From the IMG/VR virus record IMGVR_UViG_3300028840_003311: a stretch of 53,982 nt of DNA. One strand, written 5' to 3'. A program made the position numbers and the translations under genes. The DNA is from a virus. The notes below the pieces were generated by a model that did no database searches, was not told the origin of the DNA, and saw nothing but the letters and a program-made list of their open reading frames with translations. How positions within the stretch are numbered: position 1 is the stretch's first letter; the number at the start of each line of letters is the position of its first letter. Shown here piece after piece: positions 2,590-53,982 of this stretch.

Positions 2590-2807
2590 GTATCGACACA
2601 AGGGCAAAGCGCGCGTCCGCAGCCCAAGTTTTGCGGACCTATGGCCTGGCCCTCCCGGCTCCAACCGGATCGGTCGGCGCCGGGGACCGAAAGCATGTGG
2701 CGTGGTGCTATGTTGGCGATGGGCTAGTGTATACCAGTGCAGGCCCGGACATCCGCCAAGCCCATGATGTGCCTGCGCCAATTCTTAGAGAGGCAAGGGT
2801 GATATGA
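2586..2807 (+). CDS. Small hypothetical protein
   Basis: GTG start overlaps the upstream stop, and its own stop overlaps the next ATG (ATGA at 2804-2807). Confidence 0.5.
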   Translation: MSIDTRAKRASAAQVLRTYGLALPAPTGSVGAGDRKHVAWCYVGDGLVYTSAGPDIRQAHDVPAPILREARVI

Positions 2808-3685
2808 TTCGGCTAGAAATCACCGTAGCGGAAATTGGCCAGCTATTGGACCAGGGCTACACGCACATCCGCGTCTACACAGATTCCACGGCCGATGGCG
2901 CCTTTTCGACGCTGGACGGGTCCGTCGCCCTGGTAGCTGAAACCACTGGTTACAGCTACATTGATACGGACGGTGACAGTTCAACTTACTACAAGTCCGC
3001 CTTCTATGGCGCGGCTACGGGCGAGAGCGCCAAAAGCGACAGCCAGCAAGGCGCGACCATTGACGCCTATGTGTCCGCCTATGCGGTTCGGCAAGAGCTC
3101 AGCGTGGGGAGCGGGAAGGCCGCTATTGGCGGTAAGTGGGAACACGTGCTATGGAACATGGCTGTGGAGGCCTCTCGCCTTGTCGATAGCTACCGGTCTC
3201 TTGAGGACGGCGCCTACATGGCTACAGCATCATCCGCCAGGCTCATTGATGGCAACGGAGCAGTGAGGCTCAAGCTCCCCTGGCCAGCCGTCAGCGTCAG
3301 CCTAGTGGAGGTAGAAGAGACAGACGGAACGTTCACGGAATGGACGCTCAACCAGGACTACCTTCTCTTTCCGCGAAACGCCATTGCCGGGCGCCCATAC
3401 AGACGCGTGGATGTGAATCCAAAAAGTGGAACGACCAAGAGCGTATGGACCTATGGCCCATCCCGTGTTCGCGTAACGGCAGTGTGGGGCGTCTCCGCGA
3501 CTCCGCCTGACCTGATTGTGCGGGCGGTCAAGGTCCAATGCGCCATCTGGTATAAGATGGCTATGACCGGGTGGAGCGCCAGTTCGGGCGCCCAGGAGCT
3601 CGGCATGCTGGACTACCCCCGTAAGCTGGACCCTGCCGTCAAGCAGATGGTGGCCAAGGCGCCTCCCAGGGGCGCCAGGCTGTAA
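2804..3685 (+). CDS. Head-tail connector/adaptor-like protein
   Basis: Called from its position before the gp10-like gene and a C-terminal region resembling gp6-type connectors. The call is positional and weak. Confidence 0.45.
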   Translation: MIRLEITVAEIGQLLDQGYTHIRVYTDSTADGAFSTLDGSVALVAETTGYSYIDTDGDSSTYYKSAFYGAATGESAKSDSQQGATIDAYVSAYAVRQELSVGSGKAAIGGKWEHVLWNMAVEASRLVDSYRSLEDGAYMATASSARLIDGNGAVRLKLPWPAVSVSLVEVEETDGTFTEWTLNQDYLLFPRNAIAGRPYRRVDVNPKSGTTKSVWTYGPSRVRVTAVWGVSATPPDLIVRAVKVQCAIWYKMAMTGWSASSGAQELGMLDYPRKLDPAVKQMVAKAPPRGARL

Positions 3686-3713
3686 AAACCGCGGGTTTTG
3701 AGCAAAAACACGT

Positions 3714-3801
3714 CTGAGTGTCAAGTGACCATATCATAACGTATCTCAGAATGAGCGTGGATATTCAAAGGAGGGGTTACTGTGCGACGTCCTGGGGATT
3801 T
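3714..3801 (+). repeat. Copy A of a perfect 88-bp inverted repeat (partner 35854-35941)
   Basis: Manual reverse-complement comparison gave 88/88 identity. Intergenic. Contains AAAGGAGGGG-N5-GTG (GTG at 3782). Confidence 0.9.
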
Positions 3802-3854
3802 GTCCGCAAAAAAGCAGGGGCGGGACATTCTAAACCAAAACCTGGGAGCGCCTT

Positions 3855-4379
3855 GTGGCCAGTGACAGTATAGCTGTCAACTATGTCGTAGACGCTTACG
3901 ACGTGGAGCAGTTCGCGAAGGTGCTAAAGCGGTACCCGGACATCGCGCGGGCCGTCATCAAGGACACGATGGCCTCCAGCGTGGTTTATGTCATCAGCCG
4001 CATACAACCCTTGACGCCGGTCAACACGGGCGCCCTGAGAAATTCCATCAGTGGGTTTGTGGAAGAACTGACCGTTATCGGCTCGGTCGGTGGCGTGGTA
4101 CGCGGGATCGTAGAATCTGACATGGAGTACGCCCAGGCCGTGGAAATGGGAACAGATCCCCACTGGGTCCCCATCGAACCATTGAAGCGGTGGGCACACC
4201 TTGTCCTTGGCGACGAGAGCGCGGCTTACGCGGTGCAGGCCAAAATCGCGCGGGTCGGGACAGTGGGCTACGGCATGTTTGCGTTCGGGTGGCGCGAGGC
4301 TCAGCCCTGGGTGGCCGCCCGGTTTGACCAAGCTTTGTACAAGATTGTACAGAAAGTGGCCGCAGAAAATGACCACTAG
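3855..4379 (+). CDS. HK97 gp10-like head-tail joining protein
   Basis: GTG start after GGGAG. Motifs NTGALRNSI and MEYAQAVEMGT resemble the HK97 gp10 family. Position is between connector and tail genes. Confidence 0.6.
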   Translation: MASDSIAVNYVVDAYDVEQFAKVLKRYPDIARAVIKDTMASSVVYVISRIQPLTPVNTGALRNSISGFVEELTVIGSVGGVVRGIVESDMEYAQAVEMGTDPHWVPIEPLKRWAHLVLGDESAAYAVQAKIARVGTVGYGMFAFGWREAQPWVAARFDQALYKIVQKVAAENDH

Positions 4380-8667: not shown

Positions 8668-11600
8668 ATGACCGTCACGATCGAACGGTGGACCGGTTCG
8701 GCCTGGACAGACATCACGGCTACGGTCCCACTGCGCGGCTACCCACAACTGGGCTTGCAGGCGATGACCTGTCAAAAGCAAAGCGCAAACCGCGTGACGC
8801 TGGCCAGGTTTTCAGTGGAGGGGGACGACGCTTGGGATACGGACTGCGGGGACGAGATTCGCATTTCTGGCGCCCTCAACACGTTTTTTGGTGGCTATGT
8901 GGCCAGGCGGAAAATGAAGCGGCGCGGCACGATGCTGGGCGCCAATTACGAGCTAGTTGACTACACATCCCTCCTGGATCGAATCGTGGTCCCGGACTAC
9001 ACAGTGGACGCCGGCGATACGGACAGCACAGAAGTTACAGCCCTAGTCAATACGTATCTGGTGCCCCTGGGCGTCACGGTGGGCCAGATTGACACGATCC
9101 AAGCGTCTCTGGAAGAAATCTTTCTACAAGGGACATTCCGCCAGGCTATGGAGGCCATCGCCGCCCAGGCTGCGGGCGCCTACTTCTACATTGACGCCTA
9201 TAAGCAATTCCACTACTTTGAGGCTCCCGCGGACCTCTCCGCCCCAAGCTGGACCGGGCTGGACCTCTCAGACGACCCGACAGACCATCTCTTGTACTCG
9301 GCGTCTCCGTATGCAGAACTCGAGTACATAGAGGACAACACAAGGCGCGTGGACCGGGTATACATTGTCGGGGACGGCGTGGAAGGGTGGTATGGGCCAG
9401 TGTATGGCACCTACCAGGCCATCGTGTGGGATGAAACCGTGACCTCTTCCGCGGCGCTGACCGCCCTGGGCCAGGCTATCACGGCCTGGCAGAACCCCAT
9501 GACCAGCTACACGCTTGTTACCAATAGGGAAAACCCGTTTCACGCGCCAGGTGTGCGGCTCAAGCATAGCGAGTTTACATCTGGCTATGAGGACTTGTTT
9601 GTCAACCGGGCGGAGCTATGGGCTCTAAGCGACGGAACAAATCCAGCCGTCGCATGCCGGATCGAGCTAGGGGACCATCGACTAACGGATGGGTCATTCT
9701 CGGGCGGCGGGCCAGCGGGTAGCACGAGTGGGCGCGGGCCAATATTTGGAGACGGCTCCGAGCATACAGACATTGAGCCGGACGATACCAGCACGGCGGG
9801 CGTGTCCAGGTATGCTGCCCGCGAGGACCATCAACACGGGTTTGAAACGGTGGCGCCCAGCAATATCGGGACAGCCAATGCGGAGGGCAGCGCGGACAGC
9901 ATGGTCCGCAGTGACCACGTTCACAATCACCCCTCGGGCCTGGGCGCGGACCTGCACCACAATCAAAGCCACGTCTTGGCCACGACGGCGGGCCTGGGCG
10001 CGGACCACACGACGAGCGGCCTGACGTCTGGCCAAGTCTTACGGGCTACGGGCGCGACCTCTGCCGCATTCCAGAGTATCCAGGCTGCGGACCTGCCAGC
10101 CCTGGGCGGGACGCCTGGCCTGACCTTGAGCACGGCCAACGCGGCAGGCTCGGCCTCTACGTATGTAAGAACGGATGCGACCATAGCGGTTTTTGATGCT
10201 ACGGCGCCGGACACCTTGACGCCGGACCAGGCGGGCGCGGCAGGTTCTGCCAGCGTGGCCGCTCGACGCGACCACGCGCATGCCATCACGTGTGCGGCGC
10301 CCACGGGCACCCTGACAGAATCTTCCACAAACACAGAGGGAACAGCCTCCACATTCGCTAGAAGTGACCATACACACGCTATCAGCGTGGCCGCAAGTGG
10401 GGCGCCATCCGACGCGCAATACTTGACGCTGGCCTATGACGGCGACCTGTCAGCCGAGCGGCTTTTCACGGCGGGCAACGGGTTGGACGATACAGACGGC
10501 GGGGCAAATGGCGCCTACACCTTGTTCCTTGGCACGCCGGGAACCTTGTCCGTGACCTCTTCCAATGGCGTTACAGCGACCAGTCACACCCACACGGTCA
10601 CGAGCAGTTCCAACCCGGGGAGCGCGGCGTCCTTGCTGGCTACGGATTCCAATGGGCAGGTGCGCGTGATGCGGCTGGGCATCGGCGGCGCCAGCACCGC
10701 GAGTGATAATTCGATCAAATTCGCGGATGACGGATGGGTCGGGCTGGCCTACAACGGCGGGCGTTTTGTGTTCGACTCTACGCCTAGTCCGGACAACATA
10801 CGCGTTGACGACGCAAACCTTGACCTGGACGGGAACGCCCTCGTGCTCGACCCGGACGGGGACACAACTCTGTACGCAACGGAGGACACGGCCATCTTTT
10901 CGGTCGCGGGGAACGACCAATACGAGTTCACAGCGGCCAAGTTGACCATCAAGGCCGCGGGCGGCGGGACCTCCCTGGAAGTTTTTACCCATGGGGATGT
11001 TGACTCGACTGGGCCAGATTTCAAGGCAACCTCCCAGCTTGGCTTGGCGGGCGATAACGTGTGGGTGTTCATAGATCCAGATAGCGGCAGCAGCTCAGGC
11101 CATTTTTCCATCATCAATAACGTTAGCACGTCAGGGGGCGTAACCACGCCCCTGTTCCGCGTTCTAGAGGCGGGCCAGGTGGCTATAAACACGTCGGCCG
11201 CGAGTACCAAGCAAGGCAAGGGCCTGACTATTCACCAAGGCAGCGAGACGGACATTATCCTTGCCCTGCAGGGAACAGGCGTCAACCATGGCTTTACGAC
11301 CTTGGCCGACAATGACACGTTTGGACATTTTCAGAGGGCCAGTTCCACGCGCGGTGGCTTGCGTGTGCGTGGGTGGCGCGAGAACTCTAGCACCTCAACG
11401 CCATACGGCGCGCTAGAGTTGGGCGGCTACCTTGACGAGAACGCCAACACGACCAAGACATCAGGAGGGGGATATGGTATAATACGTCTTATCGGCGGAA
11501 TAGAAAGCGGCGGCGGCGTAACTGCGGCCAACTCGGACGCCAACATTGTATCTATTGAGAGCCACGGATCTGTGCGTTATATTTTTGACGCAGAGGGCAG

Positions 11601-15205: not shown

Positions 15206-15239
15206 AAAAGGCGCCCGGTCACACGACCAGGCGCCTTTT
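15206..15239. terminator. Bidirectional intrinsic terminator at the convergence of the two arms
   Basis: AAAAGGCGCC-c-GGTC-acac-GACC-a-GGCGCCTTTT, a GC-rich stem flanked by an A-run and a T-run. It lies between the + gene ending at 15178 and the - gene ending at 15241. Confidence 0.7.
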
Positions 15240-20481: not shown

Positions 20482-21504
20482 TCACAGCAAGCCATCCCCT
20501 GCGGGCGGCTCTTGACTGGGCCAGTCCGGTGGGCCTTCTGGCACGTCCGGGTACGCTGCTCGCTCGGCCAGAATCTGCCGAGCAGAAGGCCCGAAGGGCG
20601 TCGGCCTGCTCTCCACGATGTCCTCCCAGGCCTCCACGCCCAGGGCGTCAATGGTCCACCCATAGTAGGCCTCGCGCGGCCTGGCGCCTCCGGTCATCCA
20701 GGATGTATCTGGAACAGGCTGGCCCATCGCCTCCCAGGCTTTGAGCATACGCGGGCCTTGGGTCGTCTGGACCATCGTGGGGCGCCATGGGTTACGGCTG
20801 AGCGTCCCGCGCGCGGTGACCCATTTCGTTGCCCGGACCTGGAGCATCCTGATGTAGACGTCCAGAGTCAGCCGAGCGTCCTGGCCCACGTACTCAAGGA
20901 CCAGGTCGTGGGCCTGGCGCGTCCCAGGCTGGATACCTCTGGCCAGCAGGGCGGCCACGTTGGCGTCCAACTTCTGGCGGCTTTCGGGCCTCATCGCGTC
21001 CTCTTCGGGCCAGACGGCGGACCACAACACGGGCGCCAGGGCGCCGGACATCCCAGCCGTCTTGGAGCCTACGCCAAGGGCCTCCGCTATCTTGGCCAGC
21101 TTGACCATGTAGCCCATCTTGCAGACTTGCTGAAAGCCCGGATCGTACATCTCTAGCGCCAGGCGGGCCAGGCGGGCGGCCACGTCCGGGTCACGGGCAC
21201 CCTTGGCGATGGCGGGATAGTCAAACCCCAGGCCGTTCCAAGACACGATTTCATAGCCATCATTGGCCAAGCTCAACAGGAGCAGGGCGATGTCACGGAT
21301 CTGCGAATCGCTCATCTCCAAACGGTAGGGCTGCCCAGGGAGCGGGAGCGCCTGCCCATCGTTCGGGTGGAAAATGGTCGGGCCGGTGTCTCCGTCAATC
21401 ATCAGGCCAACACACGAGATTCCAAAAAAGGGCGCCATCATCCAGTCTCCGGACGGGAGCGGGCGCGCGATTTCGATGTCAAAGGCTGCCAGTTTTCTCT
21501 TCAT
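20482..21504 (-). CDS. DnaQ-like 3'-5' exonuclease fold protein
   Basis: Exo I AFDIE, Exo II WNGLGFDYP and Exo III YVGQDARLTLDVY motifs appear in the correct order. Confidence 0.7.
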   Translation of the reverse strand: MKRKLAAFDIEIARPLPSGDWMMAPFFGISCVGLMIDGDTGPTIFHPNDGQALPLPGQPYRLEMSDSQIRDIALLLLSLANDGYEIVSWNGLGFDYPAIAKGARDPDVAARLARLALEMYDPGFQQVCKMGYMVKLAKIAEALGVGSKTAGMSGALAPVLWSAVWPEEDAMRPESRQKLDANVAALLARGIQPGTRQAHDLVLEYVGQDARLTLDVYIRMLQVRATKWVTARGTLSRNPWRPTMVQTTQGPRMLKAWEAMGQPVPDTSWMTGGARPREAYYGWTIDALGVEAWEDIVESRPTPFGPSARQILAERAAYPDVPEGPPDWPSQEPPAGDGLL

Positions 21505-21577: not shown

Positions 21578-22972
21578 CTAGTCGGCGGGCGGATATTCGA
21601 CGTTGAGGCCAGTGTCCGTCCGGGTGTAGGTGATCCCCTTGGCCTCGCAAAGGGTGATGACGGCGTCTGCCAATGAGCCGGTGTAGTCCGCCATATGCTT
21701 GACGCCCAGCAGGGCGGTGGCCTCCGCGGGCGGGATATGGGCTTTAGCCAGGAACTTGTGATAGCGCATCACGGCGCCGTTTTCGCTATGGTCCGCTGTC
21801 CAGGGAGCGTCCTGGGCGGCAGTTTGGCCAGTTTCGTGTCCATTTGTGCCAGAGTCCCGCCCAGGGGCAGTCTGTGAGGCCTGCTCCAAAACCTTGGCTT
21901 GCAGGGCATCGCTCAGCGTGCGGAACCGGAGCACGTCCCACGCTTGCTTGATGGTTACGGGCTGACGGTCGGCTTTCTTGCGGACGTTGAAACCCGGGTA
22001 GAACCGGCGAACGGCGTTATAGATGTGGGCCTTGGCCTTGTAATGTCCGAGCTCCTGATTGTCGAGCGCGCGGGCGTAAAACTCGTTCCAGTCGGCCGGG
22101 ACCGGATGGTCGTCGCTGTCCCGGAGAACAAACGCGGCGCCCTCGCTTTGCTGACCTGGCGCGGCGTCTTTGGCCTTGCCCTTGTCCTGTTCGATCAAGG
22201 TGGCTGGATCTCGACCTGCGGTGGTCTTGGCCTTCGGCTCGGGCGGCTCGGGCGGCTCGGGCGGCGGATTTTGCTCATTGTAGGCGGACACGTGGGCGGC
22301 GAACTCGTCCAGTTCCCAGTAGGGGACGTCGGTGGCCAGCCCATCGCTCGACCTCGGGAGTGCCCAGGGCGCGACCTGTTCCAGCATTGGCCTGGCGGCG
22401 ATGACCCATCCCTTGCCGCGTTTCTTGATGGGGACCCACTGGGCAGGGATGCGGTAGCCATAGCGGAACACGCCCAGCTTGACGGCAGCACGTTTCAGGG
22501 CGTCCGATTCGCTGGACTTGTTGACGTCCGGGCCGCGACCTCCACCTGCGGCGCCGAAAGATTGCTTGGTGACCCAAACTCCGCCAGGCCACAAGGTTCT
22601 CAAGGTGCAAAGCAGGCCGCCATTGATGGCGGTGTATTCCTCGGTCCAGCCCTCCACCCCAAAGACGTCGTCCAGGCGGTCTTGAACCGCGCGGGCGTCG
22701 ACGTAGCACACGGCAAGCCCTTGCTTTCGATCTTCCATCGTGTGTTGGAGTTTCCAGCCAATGTAATATTCGGGGAAGGGCGCCAAGAGGCAGTGCCGGA
22801 TGTGTTCGGCGGCCTCCGGGTCAACTTTGGACGGTGGCGCCTGGGCGAGGCCCTTGGCGGCCAAGATGGCGGTCAAGAAGGTGGAGCTCAGGCCATCGGC
22901 CAGGGCGGCCAAGGTGTCGGCGGGGATAGCTGCGGTTGGATCGGAACGGGTGGCTTTGGTTTCTTCTGTCAC
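21578..22972 (-). CDS. Rad52/Sak-like single-strand annealing protein with long C-terminal extension
   Basis: N-terminal region YVDARAVQDRLDDVFGVEGW...SESDALKRAAVKLGVFRYGY matches the Rad52-type SSAP signature. GTG after GGAGA. Confidence 0.7.
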   Translation of the reverse strand: MTEETKATRSDPTAAIPADTLAALADGLSSTFLTAILAAKGLAQAPPSKVDPEAAEHIRHCLLAPFPEYYIGWKLQHTMEDRKQGLAVCYVDARAVQDRLDDVFGVEGWTEEYTAINGGLLCTLRTLWPGGVWVTKQSFGAAGGGRGPDVNKSSESDALKRAAVKLGVFRYGYRIPAQWVPIKKRGKGWVIAARPMLEQVAPWALPRSSDGLATDVPYWELDEFAAHVSAYNEQNPPPEPPEPPEPKAKTTAGRDPATLIEQDKGKAKDAAPGQQSEGAAFVLRDSDDHPVPADWNEFYARALDNQELGHYKAKAHIYNAVRRFYPGFNVRKKADRQPVTIKQAWDVLRFRTLSDALQAKVLEQASQTAPGRDSGTNGHETGQTAAQDAPWTADHSENGAVMRYHKFLAKAHIPPAEATALLGVKHMADYTGSLADAVITLCEAKGITYTRTDTGLNVEYPPAD

Positions 22973-27151: not shown

Positions 27152-27593
27152 ATTCTGCTCCTTTTGGATGTACATACAAGAACTGGCCATCCTCGGCGGG
27201 CGGGCGGGTGAAGTAGCGGGCCAGGCTGTAGGCGCCATCCGGGTTACAAATGGGACAGAGGCGCGGGGACTCTGCTCTGCATTTCAGGACCATCTCCACG
27301 GCCTGGTCCACAAGGTCCTCTTCCGGGACTGGGCCAAGGGCGGCCTCTGGCGGCCACGTGCGGGCCAGAATCAGCCCATTGGATGCCTGGGCTGCTACGG
27401 CGGATGTCAGGCCAGAGCCGTTCCCGCTGACGTGTTCGCCCAGGCGGAAGGGCAGCGGCCTGGCGGTAAAGCCAAGGTAGTGCTGGCAATGCAGATAGGG
27501 CTGTTCAAAGTGCAGCAGGTAGACCACGCCCAGTTCCCCACGGTAGCCCACGCGTCGGCGTTTGTCGTCGGTGTGAACACGGCGGCTATTCAT
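27108..27593 (-). CDS. GIY-YIG-like nuclease-fold protein
   Basis: VVYLLHF...HYLGFT...RLGEH resembles the GIY-YIG core. ATG 27593 overlaps the upstream stop. Confidence 0.45.
   Translation of the reverse strand: MNSRRVHTDDKRRRVGYRGELGVVYLLHFEQPYLHCQHYLGFTARPLPFRLGEHVSGNGSGLTSAVAAQASNGLILARTWPPEAALGPVPEEDLVDQAVEMVLKCRAESPRLCPICNPDGAYSLARYFTRPPAEDGQFLYVHPKGAEYGIPIRSTAWPAQV
27164..27179. promoter_or_regulatory. 16-bp near-palindrome TTGGATGTACATACAA abutting the RBS of the wHTH gene
   Basis: The minus strand reads TTGTATGTACATCCAA-AAGGAGcagaatATG. Related to sites at 16203 and 34342. Confidence 0.4.
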
Positions 27594-28101
27594 AGCGGGT
27601 CCTGTCGTGGCGGTAGTCTGCCGCAGCCTCGACCTGCTCATAGGCGTAGCGGATGGCCTCATAGATAACACTGCCCTTGGTGTCTGCATGGGGGAACGCG
27701 TCGGCCAGTTCGTTCAGCATGGCGGCCAAGCTGGCCTCCTTGCCCGTGGGCGCCCTGAACCATAGTTGCTCCCTGGCGTCGAACACAGGCGCGCGGCGCA
27801 AGCTCAAGCCTCGGCGTTTGGCCTCGCTTATCACGGCCGATTGTGTCCGCTTGGGCAGCCCTTGGGCGATTTGCTCCGCGGACTGGCCCTTTTCGGCCTG
27901 CTGGACCAGGAAGGCTATTTCTTGATCGCTCCAGGCGCCAGCCCTTCTATCCAGGCTGACCCTGAGCTTGTGGGCGCGGGCGTAGACGCTGGACGCGGTG
28001 CGCCTTGGGGACAGGAGTTGCCCTATCTCGGCGGCGGTACGTGTGCCAGCCAGGGCGCGAATCGTGCTATCGTCCTGCGGAGTGTACGGATTGCGAACCA
28101 T
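27586..28101 (-). CDS. DNA-binding protein with two Myb/SANT-like repeats
   Basis: Two W/Y-x-D-x-I motif repeats (YTPQDDSTIRAL..., WSDQEIAFLVQQ...). ATG after AAAGGAGC. First gene after the promoter at 28.15 kb. Confidence 0.5.
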   Translation of the reverse strand: MVRNPYTPQDDSTIRALAGTRTAAEIGQLLSPRRTASSVYARAHKLRVSLDRRAGAWSDQEIAFLVQQAEKGQSAEQIAQGLPKRTQSAVISEAKRRGLSLRRAPVFDAREQLWFRAPTGKEASLAAMLNELADAFPHADTKGSVIYEAIRYAYEQVEAAADYRHDRTRYE

Positions 28102-33757: not shown

Positions 33758-33793
33758 CGGTCGGCTCTCTTTCTGGCCCAGGCGGGCCAAGGC

Positions 33794-33814
33794 GGGCGCC
33801 CACGGTGGGCGCCC
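33794..33814 (-). repeat. Intergenic GGGCGCCC-pair hairpin
   Basis: GGGCGCCCAC-g-GTGGGCGCCC. Confidence 0.7.
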
Positions 33815-33832
33815 TGGCGGGTTGGGTGGCGT

Positions 33833-34225: not shown

Positions 34226-34269
34226 CGTTCTGCTCCTTTGTGTCTCGCATTCAACCAAACTGTGACACC

Positions 34270-34298
34270 ATCATACCACAATAGCAAAGGTTTGTCAA
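34270..34298 (-). promoter_or_regulatory. Sigma70-type promoter with conserved upstream block
   Basis: The minus strand reads TTGACAaacctttgctattgTGGTATGAT. The upstream block CCCAACCTTAAAATTATAGCAAAGCGCAAAACTGGCCC is shared with the 35.7 and 38.9 kb promoters. Confidence 0.75.
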
Positions 34299-34341
34299 GG
34301 GCCAGTTTTGCGCTTTGCTATAATTTTAAGGTTGGGCGGCC

Positions 34342-34750: not shown

Positions 34751-34777
34751 CTAGGGCGCCCACGGTGGGCGCCCTAG
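34751..34777 (-). repeat. Intergenic GGGCGCCC-pair hairpin (13-bp arms)
   Basis: CTAGGGCGCCCAC-g-GTGGGCGCCCTAG. Confidence 0.75.
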
Positions 34778-34811
34778 CAGGTGGCTTGGTGGGCCTGGGC
34801 GGCTTGGCGCT

Positions 34812-35651
34812 TTATGCGGCCTGGGCCAGCCCCATCTCGGCTTGAGCCTGCTCAATGGCGGCCAGAATCGCCTCAACGTCCTTGAGGCTGGCCATCACTG
34901 CTTCAATGGGATCCTTGGCGTATTTTTGGATGTACGCCCAGCTATTGCCGGTCGTGTCGCCAATGTTGTAGAGGTCCATCAGGACGCTGGCCGTAAACTC
35001 GGCTACGGTTTCTTGCTCTTCTTGCTGGCCTCCTTTGATCGTCTCGCCCCTGGCCTTCAAAACGCGCGCGTGAACCGCGTGGGCCAGTTCGTGGAAAAAC
35101 TCGGCGGCGCCGTGGGTGCCCACCCGAATGGCGTCTTTGGTCGGGCTGTAGTCGGCCAGGCGGTCAGGAGGGAGAGGCGTCCACGTTGCTTTCACGCCCA
35201 TGTGGGTGGCCACGTCAACCAGCGGAGGCAGCTTGGTGGGCGCATAGTTGAAGTCGGGCAGCGGTTCGCCCTCGGTCGACTCCACCGGGAAAACGGGGAT
35301 CGTGCGGAACCGCGTAAAGGCTACAACCTTGTGGCCGTCCTCAACTAGGGGTTTTCCATCGGCGCCCTTCTTGTAGACGTTGATGGGCGCAAAGATGAAC
35401 GCGGCAGAGCTGCCCTTCTTGACCTGGCGACCAACTTCCTGCCATTGGCGGTAACCGCGGCAGTCCAAGCTACCTGTCTGCAAGTAGGCCAAAACGACGT
35501 TATTGAACGACCAATGCGCCATTGGGCAGTCGTCGTCCGGGTGCCGGGTTATGCGGGCGATTCTGGTCACGGGTGAGAGGTCGCCGGACTTGAGCCGTTC
35601 GACGACCGAATCAAGGGAGGCTTGGGCCTTGGCTGAAAGTTTGATTTTCAC
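34812..35651 (-). CDS. ArdC-like protein (ssDNA-binding N-domain plus HExxH metalloprotease)
   Basis: GYRQWQEVGRQVKKGSSAAFIFAP resembles the ArdC-N/DUF1738 motif. FFHELAHAVH is a zincin motif. GTG after AAGGAGCAGAACA. Confidence 0.7.
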   Translation of the reverse strand: MKIKLSAKAQASLDSVVERLKSGDLSPVTRIARITRHPDDDCPMAHWSFNNVVLAYLQTGSLDCRGYRQWQEVGRQVKKGSSAAFIFAPINVYKKGADGKPLVEDGHKVVAFTRFRTIPVFPVESTEGEPLPDFNYAPTKLPPLVDVATHMGVKATWTPLPPDRLADYSPTKDAIRVGTHGAAEFFHELAHAVHARVLKARGETIKGGQQEEQETVAEFTASVLMDLYNIGDTTGNSWAYIQKYAKDPIEAVMASLKDVEAILAAIEQAQAEMGLAQAA

Positions 35652-35721
35652 TGTTCTGCTCCTTGGGCTGCCCGTAGCGGCGGGCGCCCTGCTCTAGGTC
35701 GCGGGTGTAAACTACACAGCC

Positions 35722-35750
35722 ATCATACCACAATAGCAAAAACTTGTCAA
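35722..35750 (-). promoter_or_regulatory. Sigma70-type promoter with conserved upstream block
   Basis: The minus strand reads TTGACAagtttttgctattgTGGTATGAT. Confidence 0.75.
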
Positions 35751-35853
35751 GGGCCAGTTTTGCCCTTTTCTAAAAGTTTAAGGTTGGGCAGGCTGGCCAG
35801 GCAGCGCCCTGGGGATGGCCGTTTGGCGCGTTTTGGCCAAGAAAAAAAAAGTA

Positions 35854-35941
35854 AAATCCCCAGGACGTCGCACAGTAACCCCTCCTTTGAATATCCACGC
35901 TCATTCTGAGATACGTTATGATATGGTCACTTGACACTCAG
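35854..35941 (-). repeat. Copy B of the perfect 88-bp inverted repeat (partner 3714-3801)
   Basis: Exact reverse complement of 3714-3801. On the minus strand it lies between the terminator (35945-35987) and a T9 run (35843-35851). Confidence 0.9.
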
Positions 35942-35944
35942 CGA

Positions 35945-35987
35945 CAAAAAGACGCCCAAAAGGGCTTTTTTGGTCCTTTTGGGCGTC
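35945..35987 (-). terminator. Intrinsic terminator after the Rmf-like gene
   Basis: The minus strand reads GACGCCCAAAAGG-N11-CCTTTTGGGCGTC followed by TTTTTG. Confidence 0.7.
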
Positions 35988-36009
35988 TTGGTGGGCCTGG
36001 GCGGCCTGG

Positions 36010-36219
36010 CTATCGGGTAGCTTGAGGTGGCGCCTTGGGCGCGGCCTGGGCCTCTGCGATTCGGTTCATCTGTTCGTTGCGGTCTTGCCAGCCTTGGCGC
36101 CAGGCGTCCACAAGTTCGGCGTCCTGGCCCTTGAACGGGCAGTCATTCAGGGAGACGCCTGAACCGTGGGCGTCCCATCCGCTCCAGCGTGCGACGGTGC
36201 GCTGACGTTGTGTAGCCAC
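36010..36219 (-). CDS. Small Rmf-like (ribosome modulation factor-like) protein
   Basis: GTG 36219 after AAAGGAGG. GWDAHGSGVSLNDCPFKGQDAELVDAWRQGWQDR parallels the Rmf pattern G-x-x-A-x-x-G...CPY...W-x-x-GW. Confidence 0.55.
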   Translation of the reverse strand: MATQRQRTVARWSGWDAHGSGVSLNDCPFKGQDAELVDAWRQGWQDRNEQMNRIAEAQAAPKAPPQATR

Positions 36220-37213: not shown

Positions 37214-37237
37214 CGGTTGCCTCCTTGGGTGGCGTGG

Positions 37238-37260
37238 AGGGCGCCCACGGGCGGCGCCCT
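37238..37260 (-). repeat. Intergenic GGCGCC-pair hairpin
   Basis: AGGGCGCC-cacgggc-GGCGCCCT followed by TGGCGGT. Confidence 0.7.
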
Positions 37261-37269
37261 TGGCGGTTT

Positions 37270-37971
37270 CTAGTCCTCGGGCGGGAACTGTTCGCGCTGG
37301 ATCTGCTCCCAAGCCTCGATCTCTTCGGGCGTGCAGCCTGGCGGCGGTTCCAGGTCGGCGGCGATGTCGTCAAAATCCAGGGCGTAGACGTCTACGGCGT
37401 TCATCCCGTAGCGCCCACCATCCAGGTCCCAGATGTAGCGCTGGAAGTCGGCGGCGTCCCCGAAAATGGCGGTGTCCACAAAGACGTACCCATCGGCGCC
37501 GTCGATCTCGGCGCCAGCGTTGAAACCCGTCTCGCGTAGGGCCTGGGCCAGGCTGTGAGCGATGGCCTGCTGAACTTCGATGCACCAGGACCGCGTCGGG
37601 TGGGCGGGCGCCTCGCTGATCTCGACGTAGAGGATGGCCCAGGAATCTTTCGGCCAAGGCTTGGTCTCGAACCGTAGGTGGTCCTTGGTGGCCTTGTCGG
37701 TGGCGCGGTAGGCGCCGTTTTGCCAGGCCAAGGGCGTCACTTCCAGACCGTGGGCGACGGCGAAATGGGTCAGGTCGGCCAGGCGGGCCAGCGTGCTGTT
37801 CTGGCTCGTGTAGTAGTACGAGGTGGCCAGTTCCCAAACCTGGGCGCCCAGGTGGCGCGTCTTTTTCGTCTGTCGCAGGCGTATCCCATAGTCGTCGGCC
37901 AGTTCGGCGGCCTTGGTGGTTTCATAGCGGTGCTCTTTGAAGGCTTTGACCATCTTGGTGGCGGTCGTCAT
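37270..37971 (-). CDS. Hypothetical protein
   Basis: ATG after AAGGAGCAGACCG. Confidence 0.6.
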   Translation of the reverse strand: MTTATKMVKAFKEHRYETTKAAELADDYGIRLRQTKKTRHLGAQVWELATSYYYTSQNSTLARLADLTHFAVAHGLEVTPLAWQNGAYRATDKATKDHLRFETKPWPKDSWAILYVEISEAPAHPTRSWCIEVQQAIAHSLAQALRETGFNAGAEIDGADGYVFVDTAIFGDAADFQRYIWDLDGGRYGMNAVDVYALDFDDIAADLEPPPGCTPEEIEAWEQIQREQFPPED

Positions 37972-38349: not shown

Positions 38350-38385
38350 CGGTCGGCTCTCTTTCTGGCCCAAACGGGCCAAGGT

Positions 38386-38406
38386 GGGCGCCCTGGGGCG
38401 GCGCCC
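38386..38406 (-). repeat. Intergenic GGGCGCCC-pair hairpin
   Basis: GGGCGCCC-tggggc-GGCGCCC followed by TTGGCGGC. Confidence 0.7.
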
Positions 38407-38446
38407 TTGGCGGCTACTTAGGCTATTTCGCGCTGGGCCTGCGTGG

Positions 38447-38830: not shown

Positions 38831-38871
38831 CTCGCTACCTCCTGGGTTTCAGTTCATCAAACTATGGCACT

Positions 38872-38900
38872 ATCATACCACAATAAGCAAAGATTGTCAA
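38872..38900 (-). promoter_or_regulatory. Leftward sigma70-type promoter with conserved upstream block
   Basis: The minus strand reads TTGACAatctttgcttattgTGGTATGAT. Confidence 0.75.
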
Positions 38901-38949
38901 GGGCCAGTTTTGACCTTTGCTCAAATTTTAAGGTTGGGGTACGACCAGG

Positions 38950-38978
38950 TTGACAGGGCGCGCGTGATGTGTTACAAT
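38950..38978 (+). promoter_or_regulatory. Rightward sigma70-type promoter (divergent from 38872-38900)
   Basis: TTGACA-gggcgcgcgtgatgtgt-TACAAT has a 17-nt spacer and an extended -10 TG. Confidence 0.7.
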
Positions 38979-39664: not shown

Positions 39665-40320
39665 TTGACTCCATAGGGCGTTACGGATTCAAGGACCCGC
39701 CCAAGTTCGAGCCGACCTTGAACGGCGGCAGCGGTGGCGTAGTGGAGGGAAACGGGCGGACCCAGGCGCTACGCTGGATGCAAAAGCAGGGGCGCGACGT
39801 CCCGCGTGGCATCGCCCTGGCGGAGGATGGAGACTGGGCGGTCCCGGTGTTGTTCGGCGTCGACGCGGAGAGCGAGGCGGCGGCCAAGGCGTACAGCCTG
39901 GACCACAACAACCTGACCTTGGCGGGCGGGGACTTGACCGCGTTCGACTACACACGCATGTATAGTGCAGACTACGTGACGTTCCTTGACGCCCTGGCCC
40001 AGGCCGACCAGCTCCCCGTGTCTATTGACGGCGACACGTTGGACACCCTGAGATTCCTCTCTGATGAGACGTTTGTGGGGGAAGAGATCCCCGACCTGGC
40101 GGGTTGGGAAGAGCCAGCCAAGGACCACAGGCTCATTGTCCAATGCGCCAGCGAGGGCCAGCTTGAGCGCCTGGCGATGCACCTCGGGCTTGAGTGGAAA
40201 TCTGGCCGTGTTCGCTTCCACTTCAGGGATACCACGCTGGCGACTGAAGAGGACCAGGAGACCGAGAGCGACGTGGACGCCCAGGTCGCGCCCAGGCTGG
40301 CAGATGACAGCCCACTATAG
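39547..40320 (+). CDS. ParB/Srx-fold N-terminal domain protein
   Basis: IEYIPLAQLLLLDDNPKLHD...VVEGNGRTQAL matches the ParB-like nuclease domain layout. Acidic C-terminus. Confidence 0.6.
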   Translation: MSDSTVPQSQDGILRIEYIPLAQLLLLDDNPKLHDLGALIDSIGRYGFKDPPKFEPTLNGGSGGVVEGNGRTQALRWMQKQGRDVPRGIALAEDGDWAVPVLFGVDAESEAAAKAYSLDHNNLTLAGGDLTAFDYTRMYSADYVTFLDALAQADQLPVSIDGDTLDTLRFLSDETFVGEEIPDLAGWEEPAKDHRLIVQCASEGQLERLAMHLGLEWKSGRVRFHFRDTTLATEEDQETESDVDAQVAPRLADDSPL

Positions 40321-41575
40321 GGCGGCTGACGACCTGCCAGCCTACGAGAGTCCGCGGTGGAGCCAGGAAATCACGGACTGCTCTATGCCTTTGACGCTGG
40401 ACCAGTACAGCCGGTGCGGATACGATTGCCAATACTGTTTTGCCTATTTCAGAAAAGCCATTGGGAACACAAAGGCTCGGTACTTGTCCAGGGGCGTGGG
40501 CGTAGTCGATGTGAACAAGGTCAAGCGCGTTTTCACAGATCCAGAGTATCCCCAGTTTGGCGCCTTCACACGCCAGCGTTTGGCTGTCCAATGGGGCGGC
40601 ATGGCTGACCCGTTCTGTCCCCTGGAGCATCGCTATGGAGTGGGCCTTGAATTGATCGAGTTCTTTAGGGAGCTGCGTTACCCTATCTCGTTCAGCACCA
40701 AGGGCACATGGTGGACGGAGGACGCGCGGTATGTAGAGCAGTTCAAAGGCGCCGACCACTTCCACGTCAAGATGTCCATTATCACCACAGACAAGGCCAA
40801 GGCCGCCAAGATAGAGCGCGGCGTCCCTGGGCCAGCCCTGCGTCTCAAGGCTATAGAGCGGATGGCCAGGTGGGGCATTGGCGGCATTACGCTGCGGCTC
40901 CGCCCATTCATCTTGGGCGTTTCCACGCCCAGCTACCTGGAGCTCATTCGCCAGGCTGCGGACGCGGGCGCGGAGGCTGTCAGCACTGAGTTTTTGTGCG
41001 TGGAGCTACGCACACCGGGCGCCAAGGCGCGCTACAGGAGAATCGGCAAGCTGGCTGGCTACCCTTTGATTGAGCAATATCAGCTACACAGTCCAGGCCA
41101 GAGCGGCTACCTGCGAGGATCCCGAGGGATGAAGGCGCCCTTTATGCGGTCGATGCAAGCGGAATGCGAACGCTTGGGCCTGCGGTTCTATGTCAGTGAC
41201 GCCCACTTCAAGGAGATGTGCGTGGGCGCGTCCTGCTGCGGCCTGCGGGAGTCCTGGAACTACTCTCGTGGCCAATTCACCCAAGCCCTGCTCATTGCCA
41301 AGGAGCGCGGGCGGGTGATGTGGTCAGACATCGCGCCAGCCTTGGAGTACGCGCGCGGCATCCCGTTTACCACTGCGACCGGATTCAATCAGACGTCCAG
41401 CGAAAAGCGTGGGCAGTTCCACAGTTGGAGCATGTTCGACTGGCTGCACTACCTGTGGAACCACGTCAACGGGCCACGTGGGCCTTACAAGTATTTCGGC
41501 GGCGTCTTGTTGCCGGCCGAGGACCTGGACGCGGCGGGCGACGTGGTCTATGTGTACAATGGAGAGGCGGCATAG
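40304..41575 (+). CDS. Radical SAM enzyme, SplB/COG1533-like
   Basis: CX3CX2C motif C-GYD-C-QY-C followed by FAYF. About 420 aa. The ATG overlaps the upstream gene by 17 nt. Confidence 0.7.
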   Translation: MTAHYRAADDLPAYESPRWSQEITDCSMPLTLDQYSRCGYDCQYCFAYFRKAIGNTKARYLSRGVGVVDVNKVKRVFTDPEYPQFGAFTRQRLAVQWGGMADPFCPLEHRYGVGLELIEFFRELRYPISFSTKGTWWTEDARYVEQFKGADHFHVKMSIITTDKAKAAKIERGVPGPALRLKAIERMARWGIGGITLRLRPFILGVSTPSYLELIRQAADAGAEAVSTEFLCVELRTPGAKARYRRIGKLAGYPLIEQYQLHSPGQSGYLRGSRGMKAPFMRSMQAECERLGLRFYVSDAHFKEMCVGASCCGLRESWNYSRGQFTQALLIAKERGRVMWSDIAPALEYARGIPFTTATGFNQTSSEKRGQFHSWSMFDWLHYLWNHVNGPRGPYKYFGGVLLPAEDLDAAGDVVYVYNGEAA

Positions 41576-42370
41576 ATGACCAGGTACCCGATCTACATAC
41601 CGTCAAAAGGGCGGGCGACTACGGCCTCTACGCCCAGGCTGCTGGGCGACCTGCCATACACCTTGGTAGTTGAGCCGACAGACCTGGGCGCATACCGTGA
41701 GTCCTTCCCGGGTGCAGACATCCTCGCGCTGGACACGTGCGACCGTGGGGCGCAATACGCACGCCAGGCCGCCCTTGCCCACGCCCGAGGCCTGGGCGTG
41801 GGCGCCTTGTGGCAACTTGACGACGACCTGACCGGGCTGTATCGCGTCGCGGCCGGAAAGTGTACGCGGTGCCCTGCTGCGGAGGCCCTGGCCTACGCGG
41901 AAACCCTGATGGACGCCCTCCCGCGCGTGGGGATCGTGGGGTTTGCTGTGCGCCAGTTCGCTTGGTCTGCAAGTAAAGCGTATGAGTGGAACAGATACCC
42001 GGTGATGTGCATCCTGGCCAGCACATCCACAGGCATCGACTACGACCCGGACATCTACCTGGCCGAGGACCTGGCCTTTTGGCTGGCCCACGTGGAGGCG
42101 TTTTGGCGTTCTATCAAGGTCAACGCTTACGCGGTGGCCGCCAGGCCGATGGCCAGCGCACACGAGGGCGGCTACCAGAAGATGTATTCTACAGAGAACG
42201 CGACTCGATACGGGAAGATGGTAGCCAGGCGCTACGCCCGATTTGTGGAGTTCAAGCCTTTGCGCCCAGGGGAATGCATTGGGTGGTCCCGTGTGCGCTA
42301 CGACGCCGTTGACGCTCACTTGGCCAGGCTGGGCAGCACCTCGGCCAGGCTAGAGAGGGAGGGCGCGTAG
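41576..42370 (+). CDS. GT-A-like glycosyltransferase (paralogue 1)
   Basis: N-terminal YPIYIPSKGRA and the DxD-type motif WQLDDDL. TAGATG junction with the upstream gene. Roughly half of positions are identical by eye to 42371-43147. Confidence 0.5.
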   Translation: MTRYPIYIPSKGRATTASTPRLLGDLPYTLVVEPTDLGAYRESFPGADILALDTCDRGAQYARQAALAHARGLGVGALWQLDDDLTGLYRVAAGKCTRCPAAEALAYAETLMDALPRVGIVGFAVRQFAWSASKAYEWNRYPVMCILASTSTGIDYDPDIYLAEDLAFWLAHVEAFWRSIKVNAYAVAARPMASAHEGGYQKMYSTENATRYGKMVARRYARFVEFKPLRPGECIGWSRVRYDAVDAHLARLGSTSARLEREGA

Positions 42371-43147
42371 ATGCTAAAATACCCGGTGTACATACCGTCG
42401 AAAGGGCGCGCGGGCCTGGCCACGACTCCGAACCTGCTGGGTGGCCTGCAGCCCATCTTGGCGGTGGAAGCGCCGGAGGCCGACGCGTACAAGGGCGCCT
42501 TCCCACACGCGGACATTCTGGCCTTGGACCCGGTGCGCGACCGCGGCGTACAGCGCGCGCGTCAAGCGTGCCTAGAACACGCTCGGCGCCTGGGCGTAAA
42601 GGCCCACTGGCAGCTCGACGACGACCTGACGCGGTTTTGCCGCGTGGAGAACCGACGTGCCAGGGACTGTTTCGCCGTGGATGCCCTGGCTTACGGGGAG
42701 GGTATCATGGACGCCTACGCGCGCGTGGGGATGGTGGGCTACAATACGCGAGAGTATGCCTGGGGCGCCAGGAAAGCATGGGACTGGAACAGGTTTGGGG
42801 CCAGGTGTGTACTAATCAATACGACCACAGGCATTGACTATGACCCGGGCCTGTTCCTTGCGGAGGACCTTGTTTTCTGGCTGGCCCACGTGGAGGCGTT
42901 TTGGCGGACCGTCAAGGTCAATGCCTACGGCATAACCACACAAGCCGTGTCCGGGGAGCTAGAGGGCGGGTGCAGCGATGTCTATAGCACAGAGAACGCG
43001 AACAGGTGTGGGAAGGCCGCGGCAGCGCGCATGTCTCGCTTTCTTGAGTTTTTGCCACTGAAACCGGGCCAGGTGATTGGATGGTCCCGCATTCGCTACG
43101 ACGCCATTGACGCCCACTTGGCCAAGTTTGGACAAAAGGAGGAATGA
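42371..43147 (+). CDS. GT-A-like glycosyltransferase (paralogue 2)
   Basis: YPVYIPSKGRA and WQLDDDL. Shares the conserved block GIDYDP..FLAEDL.FWLAHVEAFWR..KVNAY with its paralogue. Confidence 0.5.
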   Translation: MLKYPVYIPSKGRAGLATTPNLLGGLQPILAVEAPEADAYKGAFPHADILALDPVRDRGVQRARQACLEHARRLGVKAHWQLDDDLTRFCRVENRRARDCFAVDALAYGEGIMDAYARVGMVGYNTREYAWGARKAWDWNRFGARCVLINTTTGIDYDPGLFLAEDLVFWLAHVEAFWRTVKVNAYGITTQAVSGELEGGCSDVYSTENANRCGKAAAARMSRFLEFLPLKPGQVIGWSRIRYDAIDAHLAKFGQKEE

Positions 43148-44055
43148 ACGTGTCAGGCTGGGAGCCGCCCGCACAAGGATGGCCCAACTATTTCAAGGTT
43201 GAAAGCGTAGCAGGCTGTAACCTGTGGTGTTCCTTCTGCGGCATTCACGCGACTGGGTGGCCGCGGAACACGGTCGTGGGCGAAATGTCGCTGCCCCTGG
43301 CCAAGGCCATCGCCCTGCACATTCGCGGGATGCGGTCGCATCCACGCATTGACTTACAGATCCGCGGCGAACCACTGATGCATTCAGACCTTCCGGGCCT
43401 CATTCGCACCTTCCGCTATTTCATACCACGGGCGTCTCTGATGGTGGCCACAAATGGGCTGCTGCTGACAAGGGACCTCGGCGTGGCCCTGTTCAAGGCT
43501 GGGCTTACCACGCTTTTAGTGGAGCTCTATCGGCCCATCCGGGAACAGGTACGCGCGCTCAATCTGCCCGCAGAAGAACACGACTACCCAGGCGATTTCA
43601 GCCCTTGGCTATACCACACGGGCCGCCACATTGTCTATATGCCCTCCATAGGGGAGGGCAGCGCGGGCGGGCTGGCCCAAACGAGGCGGCTGACCAATCA
43701 CGCCGGAAATGCGGTCAAGGGCAGCGGACCATTGGCCGCCCCACTAGACAGCCCCTGTGCACATCCGTTCAGGGAACTGTCCATTTTCTATGACGGCCTT
43801 GTCCCCTTGTGTTGCAACGACTGGCGGGAGCAGGCTATCATAGGGCGTTTCCCGGACGACGGCGCCCTGGCGACCATCTGGCGTTCGGCCTGCTACAGCC
43901 ATGCGCGGGCGTTCTTGCGCGTGGGGAAAAGGGCCAGCTTGGCGCCCTGCGACGTCTGCGATGTCAAAACGACCAGAAACGGCCTGCTGCCCAGGGCGTC
44001 TACGCCGGACGCATTGGCCTTGGCTACCTGCGGCCTGGCGGCCAAGGAGGTGTAA
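43144..44055 (+). CDS. Radical SAM enzyme with SPASM/twitch-like C-terminal Cys cluster
   Basis: CX3CX2C motif C-NLW-C-SF-C. C-terminal CAHPF...LCCNDW...CDVCDV. ATGA overlap with the upstream gene. Confidence 0.7.
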   Translation: MNVSGWEPPAQGWPNYFKVESVAGCNLWCSFCGIHATGWPRNTVVGEMSLPLAKAIALHIRGMRSHPRIDLQIRGEPLMHSDLPGLIRTFRYFIPRASLMVATNGLLLTRDLGVALFKAGLTTLLVELYRPIREQVRALNLPAEEHDYPGDFSPWLYHTGRHIVYMPSIGEGSAGGLAQTRRLTNHAGNAVKGSGPLAAPLDSPCAHPFRELSIFYDGLVPLCCNDWREQAIIGRFPDDGALATIWRSACYSHARAFLRVGKRASLAPCDVCDVKTTRNGLLPRASTPDALALATCGLAAKEV

Positions 44056-44056
44056 C

Positions 44057-53754: not shown

Positions 53755-53982
53755 ATGTATGTAACAGGGCAAAGCCGGGGGATTGTCAATATCCCCGGTG
53801 GCTGGATATATGCCTTGTTCCCCATGGGCGCGGAAGTGGTCGAGTACCACTTGCGGGCCACGTGGAACAGCGCAGACGACCAAGGTTATGACGATGAACA
53901 GGTCTTGGACACCGTAGCAGAGGGCGTCGAGGACGGCTCCTTGGTCGTCAACGAGGATACGAATCGGACCTGGACAGTAGAA
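53755..53982 (+). CDS. 5' part of the LamG-like structural gene that continues at window position 1
   Basis: ATG 53755 after AAAAGAGG. No stop before the window end. In frame with 1-1260 through the 144-bp overlap. Confidence 0.6.
   Translation, partial: MYVTGQSRGIVNIPGGWIYALFPMGAEVVEYHLRATWNSADDQGYDDEQVLDTVAEGVEDGSLVVNEDTNRTWTVE
53839..53982. repeat. Terminal redundancy (identical to 1-144)
   Basis: See the feature at 1-144. Confidence 0.9.

Follow-up and report, generated by a model that had tools for sequence, protein, structure and literature searches.

This study examined an 88-nt sequence that occurs twice, in inverted orientation, in a phage genome, and the repeat is real, exact, statistically unambiguous, lineage-specific and present in two copies only. 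Most likely, the element is a small cassette of expression signals that was copied recently, and not a new regulatory system, and it most likely represents a further case of a repeated intergenic regulatory cassette in a phage genome. The window, by which we mean the whole stretch of DNA analysed (53,982 nt, GC 61.9%), holds a circular assembly of 53,838 bp, with window bases 1-144 recurring at 53839-53982. Two divergent transcription blocks make up this genome. The plus-strand block, which carries the structural genes and a DNA-modification-like block, runs from about 38977 through the origin to 16404 and has one consensus promoter ahead of it, at 38950; the minus-strand block, with the early, replication and recombination genes, extends from 38830 to 16497 and has six near-identical consensus promoters (TTGACA-17-TGnTATGAT) ahead of it. 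Besides the genes listed in Table 1, the phage encodes an HTH_36 initiator-like protein, a DnaC/IstB-like loader and an FtsK/HerA-type ATPase, and a genome scan detected no tRNA or tmRNA genes.

Table 1. Coordinates of the repeated element, its internal features and the neighbouring or otherwise relevant genes in the window
Feature	Position	Strand	Remarks
Copy A of the 88-nt element	3714-3801	+	exact match to copy B
Copy B of the 88-nt element	35854-35941	-	read on the - strand, same sequence as copy A
Shine-Dalgarno sequence, N5, GTG in copy A	3767-3784	+	SD AAAGGAGGGG at 3767-3776, GTG at 3782
Same SD-start signal in copy B	35888-35871	-	
Mini-ORF A, 27 codons	3782-3865	+	MRRPGD + 21 residues absent from B
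Mini-ORF B, 31 codons	35778-35873	-	MRRPGD + 25 residues absent from A
Best sigma-70-like site in the element (weak)	3725-3752	+	GTGACC, 16 nt, CAGAAT; 6.4 bits
Head-tail adaptor gene, upstream of copy A	2804-3685	+	phrog_442 E 1.5e-07; 29 homologues
Lineage-specific insert at adaptor/gp10 junction, 169 nt	3686-3854	+	28-nt left flank, element, 53-nt right flank
HK97-gp10-like tail-completion gene, downstream of copy A	3855-4379	+	PF04883 E 3e-06; phrog_5 E 5e-11
69-aa gene, weakly RMF-like, upstream of copy B	36010-36219	-	PF04957 E 8.8e-4, below curated cut-off; ENA gene call
Intrinsic terminator hairpin and T-run, directly 5' of copy B	35942-35989	-	15-bp stem; -22.1 kcal/mol, then TTTTT
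Consensus sigma-70 promoter of ArdC-like operon	35722-35750	-	TTGACA-17-TATGAT with TG; within 81-nt cassette
ArdC-like anti-restriction gene, downstream of copy B	34812-35651	-	
Rad52/22-family single-strand-annealing protein	21578-22972	-	PF04098 E 7.8e-09
RNase H-fold nuclease-like protein	20482-21504		PF13482; adjoins Rad52-family gene
GcrA-like DNA-binding protein	27586-28101		

The two copies are exact reverse complements over all 88 positions (88/88), and both are intergenic and co-oriented with the local transcription, as the preliminary description stated. The edges of the repeat are sharp, the first flanking base differing on each side at both ends. No comparable match was obtained in 100 dinucleotide-preserving shuffles of the window, even when three mismatches were allowed, and none is expected by chance. 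After this pair, the longest exact repeat of the 53,838-bp genome measures 29 nt, and no partial third copy of the element was detected by short-word BLAST or by k-mer search. The earlier claim that the window holds no other repeat of such length is true for exact repeats, while imperfect families do exist: three copies of an 81-nt promoter cassette, which are 83-85% identical to the reference copy (about 90% by local alignment), and a 256-nt paralogue pair with 72% identity. A GC-rich hairpin, GGGCGCCCACGGTGGGCGCCC, was also found four times, each time just upstream of the ribosome-binding site of an early gene, and the relatives of this phage have near-identical hairpins of their own, which differ from this one and are placed in a similar way. 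Since the phage and its relatives both harbor repeated intergenic modules, the copying and homogenising of intergenic cassettes is a habit of this phage group.

It had been pointed out that an assembly artefact in one copy would undermine the finding, and this is contradicted by two ENA assemblies and by the break points of a third assembly. The ENA assemblies ERZ27256798 and ERZ27256783, obtained from different samples, contain the element and are 100% identical to the window over the ranges fetched, which cover both copies; the genome was thus recovered unchanged from at least two samples. The Logan k=31 assembly of SRR6963591 breaks at all three of the repeat boundaries retrieved. One contig (L002) breaks off after 31 nt of copy A, counted from its 5' end, and two others (L051 and L049) both start with the last 30 nt of the element, after which the former continues into the flank of site A and the latter into that of site B. 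Breaks of a k=31 assembly at the repeat edges follow from a true repeat that is longer than k.

The 3' third of the element reads TCAAAGGAGGGG-TTACT-GTG, followed by CGA CGT CCT GGG GAT. The Shine-Dalgarno (SD) sequence, five-base spacer and GTG, with the subsequent R-R-P-G-D codons, are therefore present in both copies as previously described, and so are the ORFs of 27 and 31 codons, which diverge right after the repeat and have six codons in common only. From a survey of AGGAG/AAGGAG sites, it was observed that the real genes of the phage start with AAGGAG-N6-8-ATG/GTG and that most of the sense-strand AAGGAG sites with such spacing precede real genes; by this measure the element carries what looks like a genuine gene start. 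The TGA of mini-ORF A (3863-3865) overlaps the start region of the gp10-like gene, whose GTG at 3855 is supported by the ENA gene call and by an upstream in-frame stop. Mini-ORF B stops shortly before the promoter cassette, with about 125 nt left to the next gene, and is coupled to no gene. Consequently, the leader-peptide coupling suggested earlier is plausible at site A, where the stop overlaps the gp10-like start, and fails at site B, where the ORF ends upstream of the promoter. A second frame, which lacks an SD, is open through the whole element (3718-3873 and 35937-35770), and the ENA gene calls at both sites include neither the mini-ORFs nor this other open frame. The Phe-rich FTFFF of mini-ORF B was considered as a sign of an attenuator leader and rejected, as it is merely the translated T9 run and no terminator comes after it.

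The GC content of the element (46.6%) lies within the span shown by those intergenic gaps of the phage that hold a promoter (44-52%), unlike that of the non-promoter gaps of the structural module (60-73%). In its 5' part, only short symmetry was noticed, comprising CTGAG...CTCAG (a quasi-palindrome with N25) and GTCA-AG-TGAC. Of the complementarity first reported as TCTGAG/CTCAGA, the core CTGAG/CTCAG does lie inside the repeat, whereas the first T belongs to the flank of site A. No consensus promoter was found by scanning site A, and in the match seen at site B (TTGTCG-18-TATCAT, 9/12) the -35 hexamer is supplied by the flank. With a matrix built from the seven consensus promoters of the phage, whose own scores are 25-37.5 bits, the best site in the element is weak (Table 1); 59 of 107,676 genome positions score at least as high, and about 0.05 such sites are expected per strand in 88 nt. 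A consensus promoter inside the element was accordingly rejected.

With reference to the relatives, the adaptor protein has homologues of which the closest are about 62% identical, and the comparison covered the contigs of several adaptor homologues together with 34 loci from JGI metagenomes. In most lineages, the gp10-like start touches or overlaps the adaptor stop, as observed in L006/7/8, L009, L013, L017/18, L022/23, L025/26, L028, L031, L035, L036 and L043. Unrelated inserts at this junction were disclosed in four lineages: the 169-nt insert of the window, one of 98 nt in L003, one of about 135-160 nt in L020 that consists largely of 43-nt tandem repeats, and one of about 580 nt in L019 with an ORF inside. 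Homology between the inserts of the window and L003 was rejected, as their local alignment was no better than that of shuffles (p = 0.43). When a 20-mer taken from the centre of the L003 insert was searched in that 53.9-kb genome, a single occurrence was obtained, indicating that the two-copy layout is not common to L003, at least for that part of the insert.

On the minus strand, site B displays the order 69-aa gene, terminator, element, T9 run, about 65 nt, 81-nt promoter cassette and ArdC-like gene, with the ArdC promoter about 100 nt 3' of copy B. L010 is a genome of the type of L006 and L008, and its adaptor and gp10-like genes abut; upstream of its ArdC-like gene lie no more than a terminator and a promoter, and no homologue of the 69-aa gene or of the 189-aa gene of the window was detected in this genome. 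The 69-aa gene was tried as a lead to the source of the cassette and gave none: no homologue besides itself was found among 5.8 billion proteins, and its comparison with PDB 2jrm yielded an E-value of 0.2. The idea that both copies follow a terminator was likewise discarded, being true of site B only; at site A, the hairpin that follows the adaptor gene is weak, and neither terminator scan reported it. Judged by these junctions, both sites are lineage-specific insertion points, and site A a recurrent one.

The element itself was absent from every relative examined, at both sites. Nine exact or degenerate element patterns had no match in IMG/VR, the JGI metagenomes or the GTDB genomes, distant blastn against phage and plasmid records returned no match, and nhmmer and blastn against 46 loci recovered the phage itself only. 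The preliminary description had conceded that its finding would be undermined if related phages lacked the element at both positions; this is the situation among the relatives examined, and it argues against a conserved role. A conserved regulatory device is therefore unlikely as far as the sequence comparison goes. The relatives are distant (about 60% protein identity), so that the age of the duplication cannot be bracketed.

Our preferred explanation, which we put forward tentatively, is that an expression-signal cassette has very recently been copied between two accessory-DNA insertion points of one lineage, or that gene conversion keeps it identical at both. Such a cassette would be a non-coding stretch in which an AT-rich leader runs into a consensus SD and a GTG start with six codons. 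The copy would have been made by recombination, probably through the Rad52-type annealing protein of the phage, or by a short conversion tract. Transposition is not the origin of the copy, because no terminal inverted repeats were found (the element begins with CTGAGTG and ends with GGGGATTT) and no target-site duplication or common target was detected in the flanks (ACGT/GTCC on the two sides of copy A, GTCG/TACT on those of copy B). An element derived from a MITE or IS was rejected on these missing terminal signatures and on the lack of copies in the other genomes searched. Once in mRNA, the cassette would presumably load ribosomes. At site A, the 27-codon ORF ending on the gp10-like start could restore the translational coupling that the insert would have broken, given that the adaptor and gp10-like genes abut in relatives. 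The copy at site B is probably a remnant, the vestigial 5' end of an accessory gene that has been lost, or else the donor copy. As a side effect, the 88-bp inverted homology may be able to invert the 32-kb segment between the copies.

Several observations point to this cassette: the exactness and uniqueness of the repeat, its reality in the reads, the gene-like SD-GTG, a GC content like that of the promoter gaps, the recurrent insertion at site A, the layout upstream of the ArdC-like gene in L010, the overlap of the mini-ORF A stop with the gp10-like start, the Rad52-family protein, the cassette families of the genome and the precedent of the PeSL cassettes (PMC2839356). On the opposing side, two ORFs with only six codons in common do not amount to a conserved product, site B offers nothing to couple to, and the promoter-like site inside the element is weak. 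The gp10-like gene also has its own GGGAG Shine-Dalgarno sequence, so that coupling may be unnecessary. Again, with two identical copies and no homologue, conservation and covariation cannot show selection, and the repeat could be a neutral scar.

That neutral scar is the main rival to the copied cassette and, while we consider it unlikely, it carries real weight. According to this explanation, the second copy is a functionless by-product of recent recombination or repair, such as a conversion or template-switch tract, and its perfect identity would follow from youth alone. It agrees with the presence of just two sharp-edged copies having no homologue in the collections searched, with their absence at both sites in all relatives examined, with the lack of any structure signal, with ORFs that diverge immediately after the repeat, and with the single-copy state, at least for the 20-mer tested, of the L003 insert at the same junction. 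The sense orientation and intergenic position of both copies, with an intact gene-like SD-start, speak against a scar, as does a genome that is unchanged in at least two samples. These points are not strong, because selection removes insertions in genes and a matching orientation has a 50% chance.

A shared operator is quite improbable. Here the 5' half of the element, with CTGAG-N25-CTCAG and GTCA-AG-TGAC, is predicted to be bound by a phage or host regulator that governs the tail module and the ArdC-like operon together. The same sequence does head two transcription blocks in matching orientation, and the phage encodes DNA-binding proteins of the GcrA-like and HTH_36 types. Sites for regulators are usually 15-30 bp long and mismatch-tolerant; the internal symmetry of the element is short (arms of 4-5 bp), identity over 88/88 positions is not what binding-site selection produces, and the relatives regulate the same modules without the element. 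Operator-type repeats are nevertheless well known in phages, and in the study of cluster K mycobacteriophages the stoperators of cluster A phages serve as the contrast to the repeats described there (PMC3203893).

There is very little chance that the element was purpose-built in cis to place the tail-assembly block under one signal with the anti-restriction/early block, even when the two versions of this idea are taken jointly. In one version, an extended-SD translation leader would stay active when a phage factor alters the ribosomes, the adjacent gene being faintly RMF-like; in the other, the Rad52-type recombinase that the phage itself encodes would drive an inversion switch. The way in which the two copies are laid out is the one observation that speaks for such an element. 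Either version, if true, would amount to a type of control that has not been described in phages.

The role of a recombination substrate, which the preliminary description had also proposed, is physically plausible since the phage encodes Rad52-family and RNase H-fold nuclease-like proteins, and the Rad52-type protein may be regarded as a candidate trans-acting factor that copies, homogenises or inverts between the copies. Recombination as the function of the element is a different matter and stands as a candidate only. As a functional switch, the inverted pair would invert the 32-kb segment 3802-35853 and generate two isomers in which the operons are wired differently; a perfect inverted homology of 88 bp and an annealing protein of the Rad52 family are at hand for this, and to judge from the layout an inversion would leave each gene pointing the same way as the gene newly placed upstream of it. 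The window agrees in gene order and strand relations with the L010-type relative, which lacks the repeat, and in both the ArdC-like start lies about 21 kb upstream of the adaptor start in contig coordinates. This match in order and spacing means that the window is not the inverted isomer. Moreover, the window and both ENA assemblies represent one isomer at the junctions fetched from these assembled contigs, and the inverted tail genes would sit behind a strong terminator without a consensus promoter. No integrase, invertase, transposase or serine/tyrosine recombinase was detected among the 48 ORFs scanned against Pfam, a set that leaves aside the small ORFs and some larger ones. We thus regard a functional switch as highly improbable.

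The sites HK022 putL/putR and lambda nutL/nutR are defined by RNA structure or by boxA/boxB, and they lie between the promoter and the terminators. In general, a put/nut site is located downstream of a promoter and upstream of the terminators that are overridden. By analogy, a cis-acting structured RNA of the antitermination or processing type, placed once in each divergent transcription block, might be suggested for the element, as its two copies, one per block and co-oriented with transcription, resemble putL/putR and nutL/nutR. Unlike those sites, the element has no structure signal. Its minimum free energy is -17.1 kcal/mol as against a shuffle mean of -20.2 (z = +1.0, sense), the antisense strand gives z = +0.7, and site A with its flanks again gives z = +0.7. 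The only pairing inside the element is the 5-bp CTGAG/CTCAG, and the sole significant fold at site B is the terminator hairpin. Rfam returned no match at gathering score in the whole window, and at E<=5 around both copies it gave only two weak microRNA-family matches, both on the site B terminator hairpin. The structure prediction and Rfam search recommended in the preliminary description therefore yielded no signal for the element. Copy B comes after a strong terminator and about 100 nt before the next promoter, which is the wrong place for a put/nut site, on the wrong side of both, and copy A is located about 18.6 kb downstream of the sole consensus promoter of the plus strand. Direct evidence against the put/nut-like or RNA-processing element first proposed comes from the structure tests and from where copy B lies, and we give this reading hardly any chance.

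The two mini-ORFs, or the other open frame, as starts of small proteins with a common N-terminus are scarcely credible, for in spite of the strong SD and GTG ahead of the mini-ORFs and a second frame that stays open through the whole element, the SD-led frame provides just six common residues, the other frame has no SD, and the ENA gene calls include neither ORF.

Morons are accessory gene cassettes that are inserted between genes adjacent in related phages, usually with a promoter and a terminator of their own. The element resembles them in that both copies lie in DNA that is extra relative to the relatives, and an ORF-bearing insert is found in L019 at the same adaptor/gp10 junction. It differs from them in carrying only putative 5' expression signals and no accessory gene, ENA calling no gene there. 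A second comparison concerns the SAS/ESAS sequences of cluster K mycobacteriophages, which are repeats that contain a ribosome-binding site (RBS) and whose function is unknown (Pope et al. 2011, PMC3203893). The SAS is 13 bp long, occurs in 11-19 copies, is conserved across the whole cluster and stands 3-7 bp ahead of the start codons of real genes (PMC3203893). The element likewise includes an RBS near a start codon and keeps one orientation relative to transcription, but it is 88 bp long, has two copies in one genome, and lies ahead of ORFs of 27 and 31 codons only.

The closest described counterparts of the element are the PeSL (promoter-early stem-loop) cassettes of T4-type phages, which are mobile regulatory cassettes (Arbiol et al. 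2010, PMC2839356; Comeau et al. 2014, PMC4122927). They are short, AT-rich intergenic repeats that end in the SD and start codon of the next ORF, and they are clustered in plastic regions by accessory ORFs, where they are recombination substrates (PMC2839356). They also display a consensus sigma-70 early promoter and a stable stem-loop that serves as terminator or attenuator, with about 50 copies per genome. The element shares with the PeSLs the terminal SD and start codon and the location in lineage-specific inserts, and differs from them in having neither a consensus promoter nor a stable hairpin and in being limited to two exact copies. It belongs to neither the PeSL nor the SAS family.

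As the element comes from one metagenomic lineage and shows neither conservation nor a structure signal, its wider significance is limited. If the cassette does load ribosomes and re-couple translation into the tail-completion gene, it would represent a phage repairing operon continuity after an insertion between overlapping genes, and, if the copying is true, regulatory cassettes would be seen to spread within a genome outside the T4-type phages. The inverted pair, found together with a Rad52-type annealing protein, also provides a natural test of how much inverted homology can be tolerated by a small phage genome. Within the window, PeSLs find a better match in the 81-nt promoter cassettes and the terminators next to them than in the 88-nt element.

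Recurrent regulatory elements were observed in the minus-strand early operons of the window (see the table). The GC-rich hairpin GGGCGCCCACGGTGGGCGCCC occurs four times in these operons, and is placed after a stop codon and before the next ribosome-binding site. In distant phage relatives, the hairpins detected in the equivalent position, such as GCCGGCCACACGTGGCCGGC, differ in sequence from those of the window, yet are near-identical within each genome, and this pattern suggests within-genome concerted evolution of the intercistronic hairpins.

The 81-nt promoter cassette, comprising an AT-rich upstream portion followed by TTGACA-17-TGnTATGAT, was also found repeated, with its copies displaying 83-85% identity to the reference copy. 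A terminator precedes the cassette at 34.3 kb and at 35.9 kb, an arrangement that resembles the layout of the promoter-early stem-loop (PeSL) cassettes of T4-type phages.

The 69-aa 'Rmf-like' gene exhibited only a weak match to ribosome modulation factor (Pfam E 8.8e-4, under the curated cut-off; PDB 2jrm, E 0.2); a search among 5.8 billion proteins recovered only the self-match, and no homologue was detected in the closest syntenic relative. The protein encoded at 27586-28101 (-) scores 26.9 bits against the GcrA family, which is exactly the Pfam cut-off; a role in regulating phage transcription is possible, and the protein may also give a clue to the host.

Positions of the features detected in the window and in distant relatives (L-numbered contigs)
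Feature	Sequence	Coordinates	Strand
Hairpin GGGCGCCCACGGTGGGCGCCC	window	33791-33826, 34751-34786, 37236-37271, 38383-38418	-
Intercistronic hairpins	L006	13114-13153, 19418-19456	
Intercistronic hairpins	L010	4342-4374, 6817-6849, 10779-10804	
81-nt promoter cassette, three copies	window	34256-34336, 35708-35788, 38858-38938	-
'Rmf-like' gene, 69-aa ORF (ENA gene calling)	window	36010-36219	-
Radical-SAM/SPASM genes	window	40064-41575, 43144-44055	+
TET-associated glycosyltransferase genes, PF20691	window	41576-42370, 42371-43147, 43901-44818	+
Perfect GC-rich hairpin GGCGCCCGGTCACACGACCAGGCGCC, T-runs on both strands	window	15209-15236	
Junction insert, ORF of about 190 aa	L019	3074-3655	
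Junction insert, 43-nt tandem repeats	L020	785-945	
Junction insert, 98-nt non-coding, small hairpin	L003	10880-10977	

On the plus strand, three paralogous PF20691 genes are interspersed with two radical-SAM/SPASM genes (40064-44818), and the sole consensus plus-strand promoter of the window (38950) lies immediately upstream of them. The region looks like a DNA base-hypermodification cluster, and no TET/JBP or methyltransferase partner for it was found.

The junction between the head-tail adaptor and HK97-gp10-like genes is an insertion hot spot throughout this phage group, with the inserts of three relatives being tabulated. In the plus-strand structural block, GGCGCCCGGTCACACGACCAGGCGCC is the sole clean intrinsic terminator and is located ahead of the final plus-strand ORFs. 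At 11455-11590 (+), two sigma-70-like sites, each with 10/12 matches, were noticed within the 1073-aa tail gene, together with AGGAGGGGG-ATG, and these may represent chance matches or an internal start.
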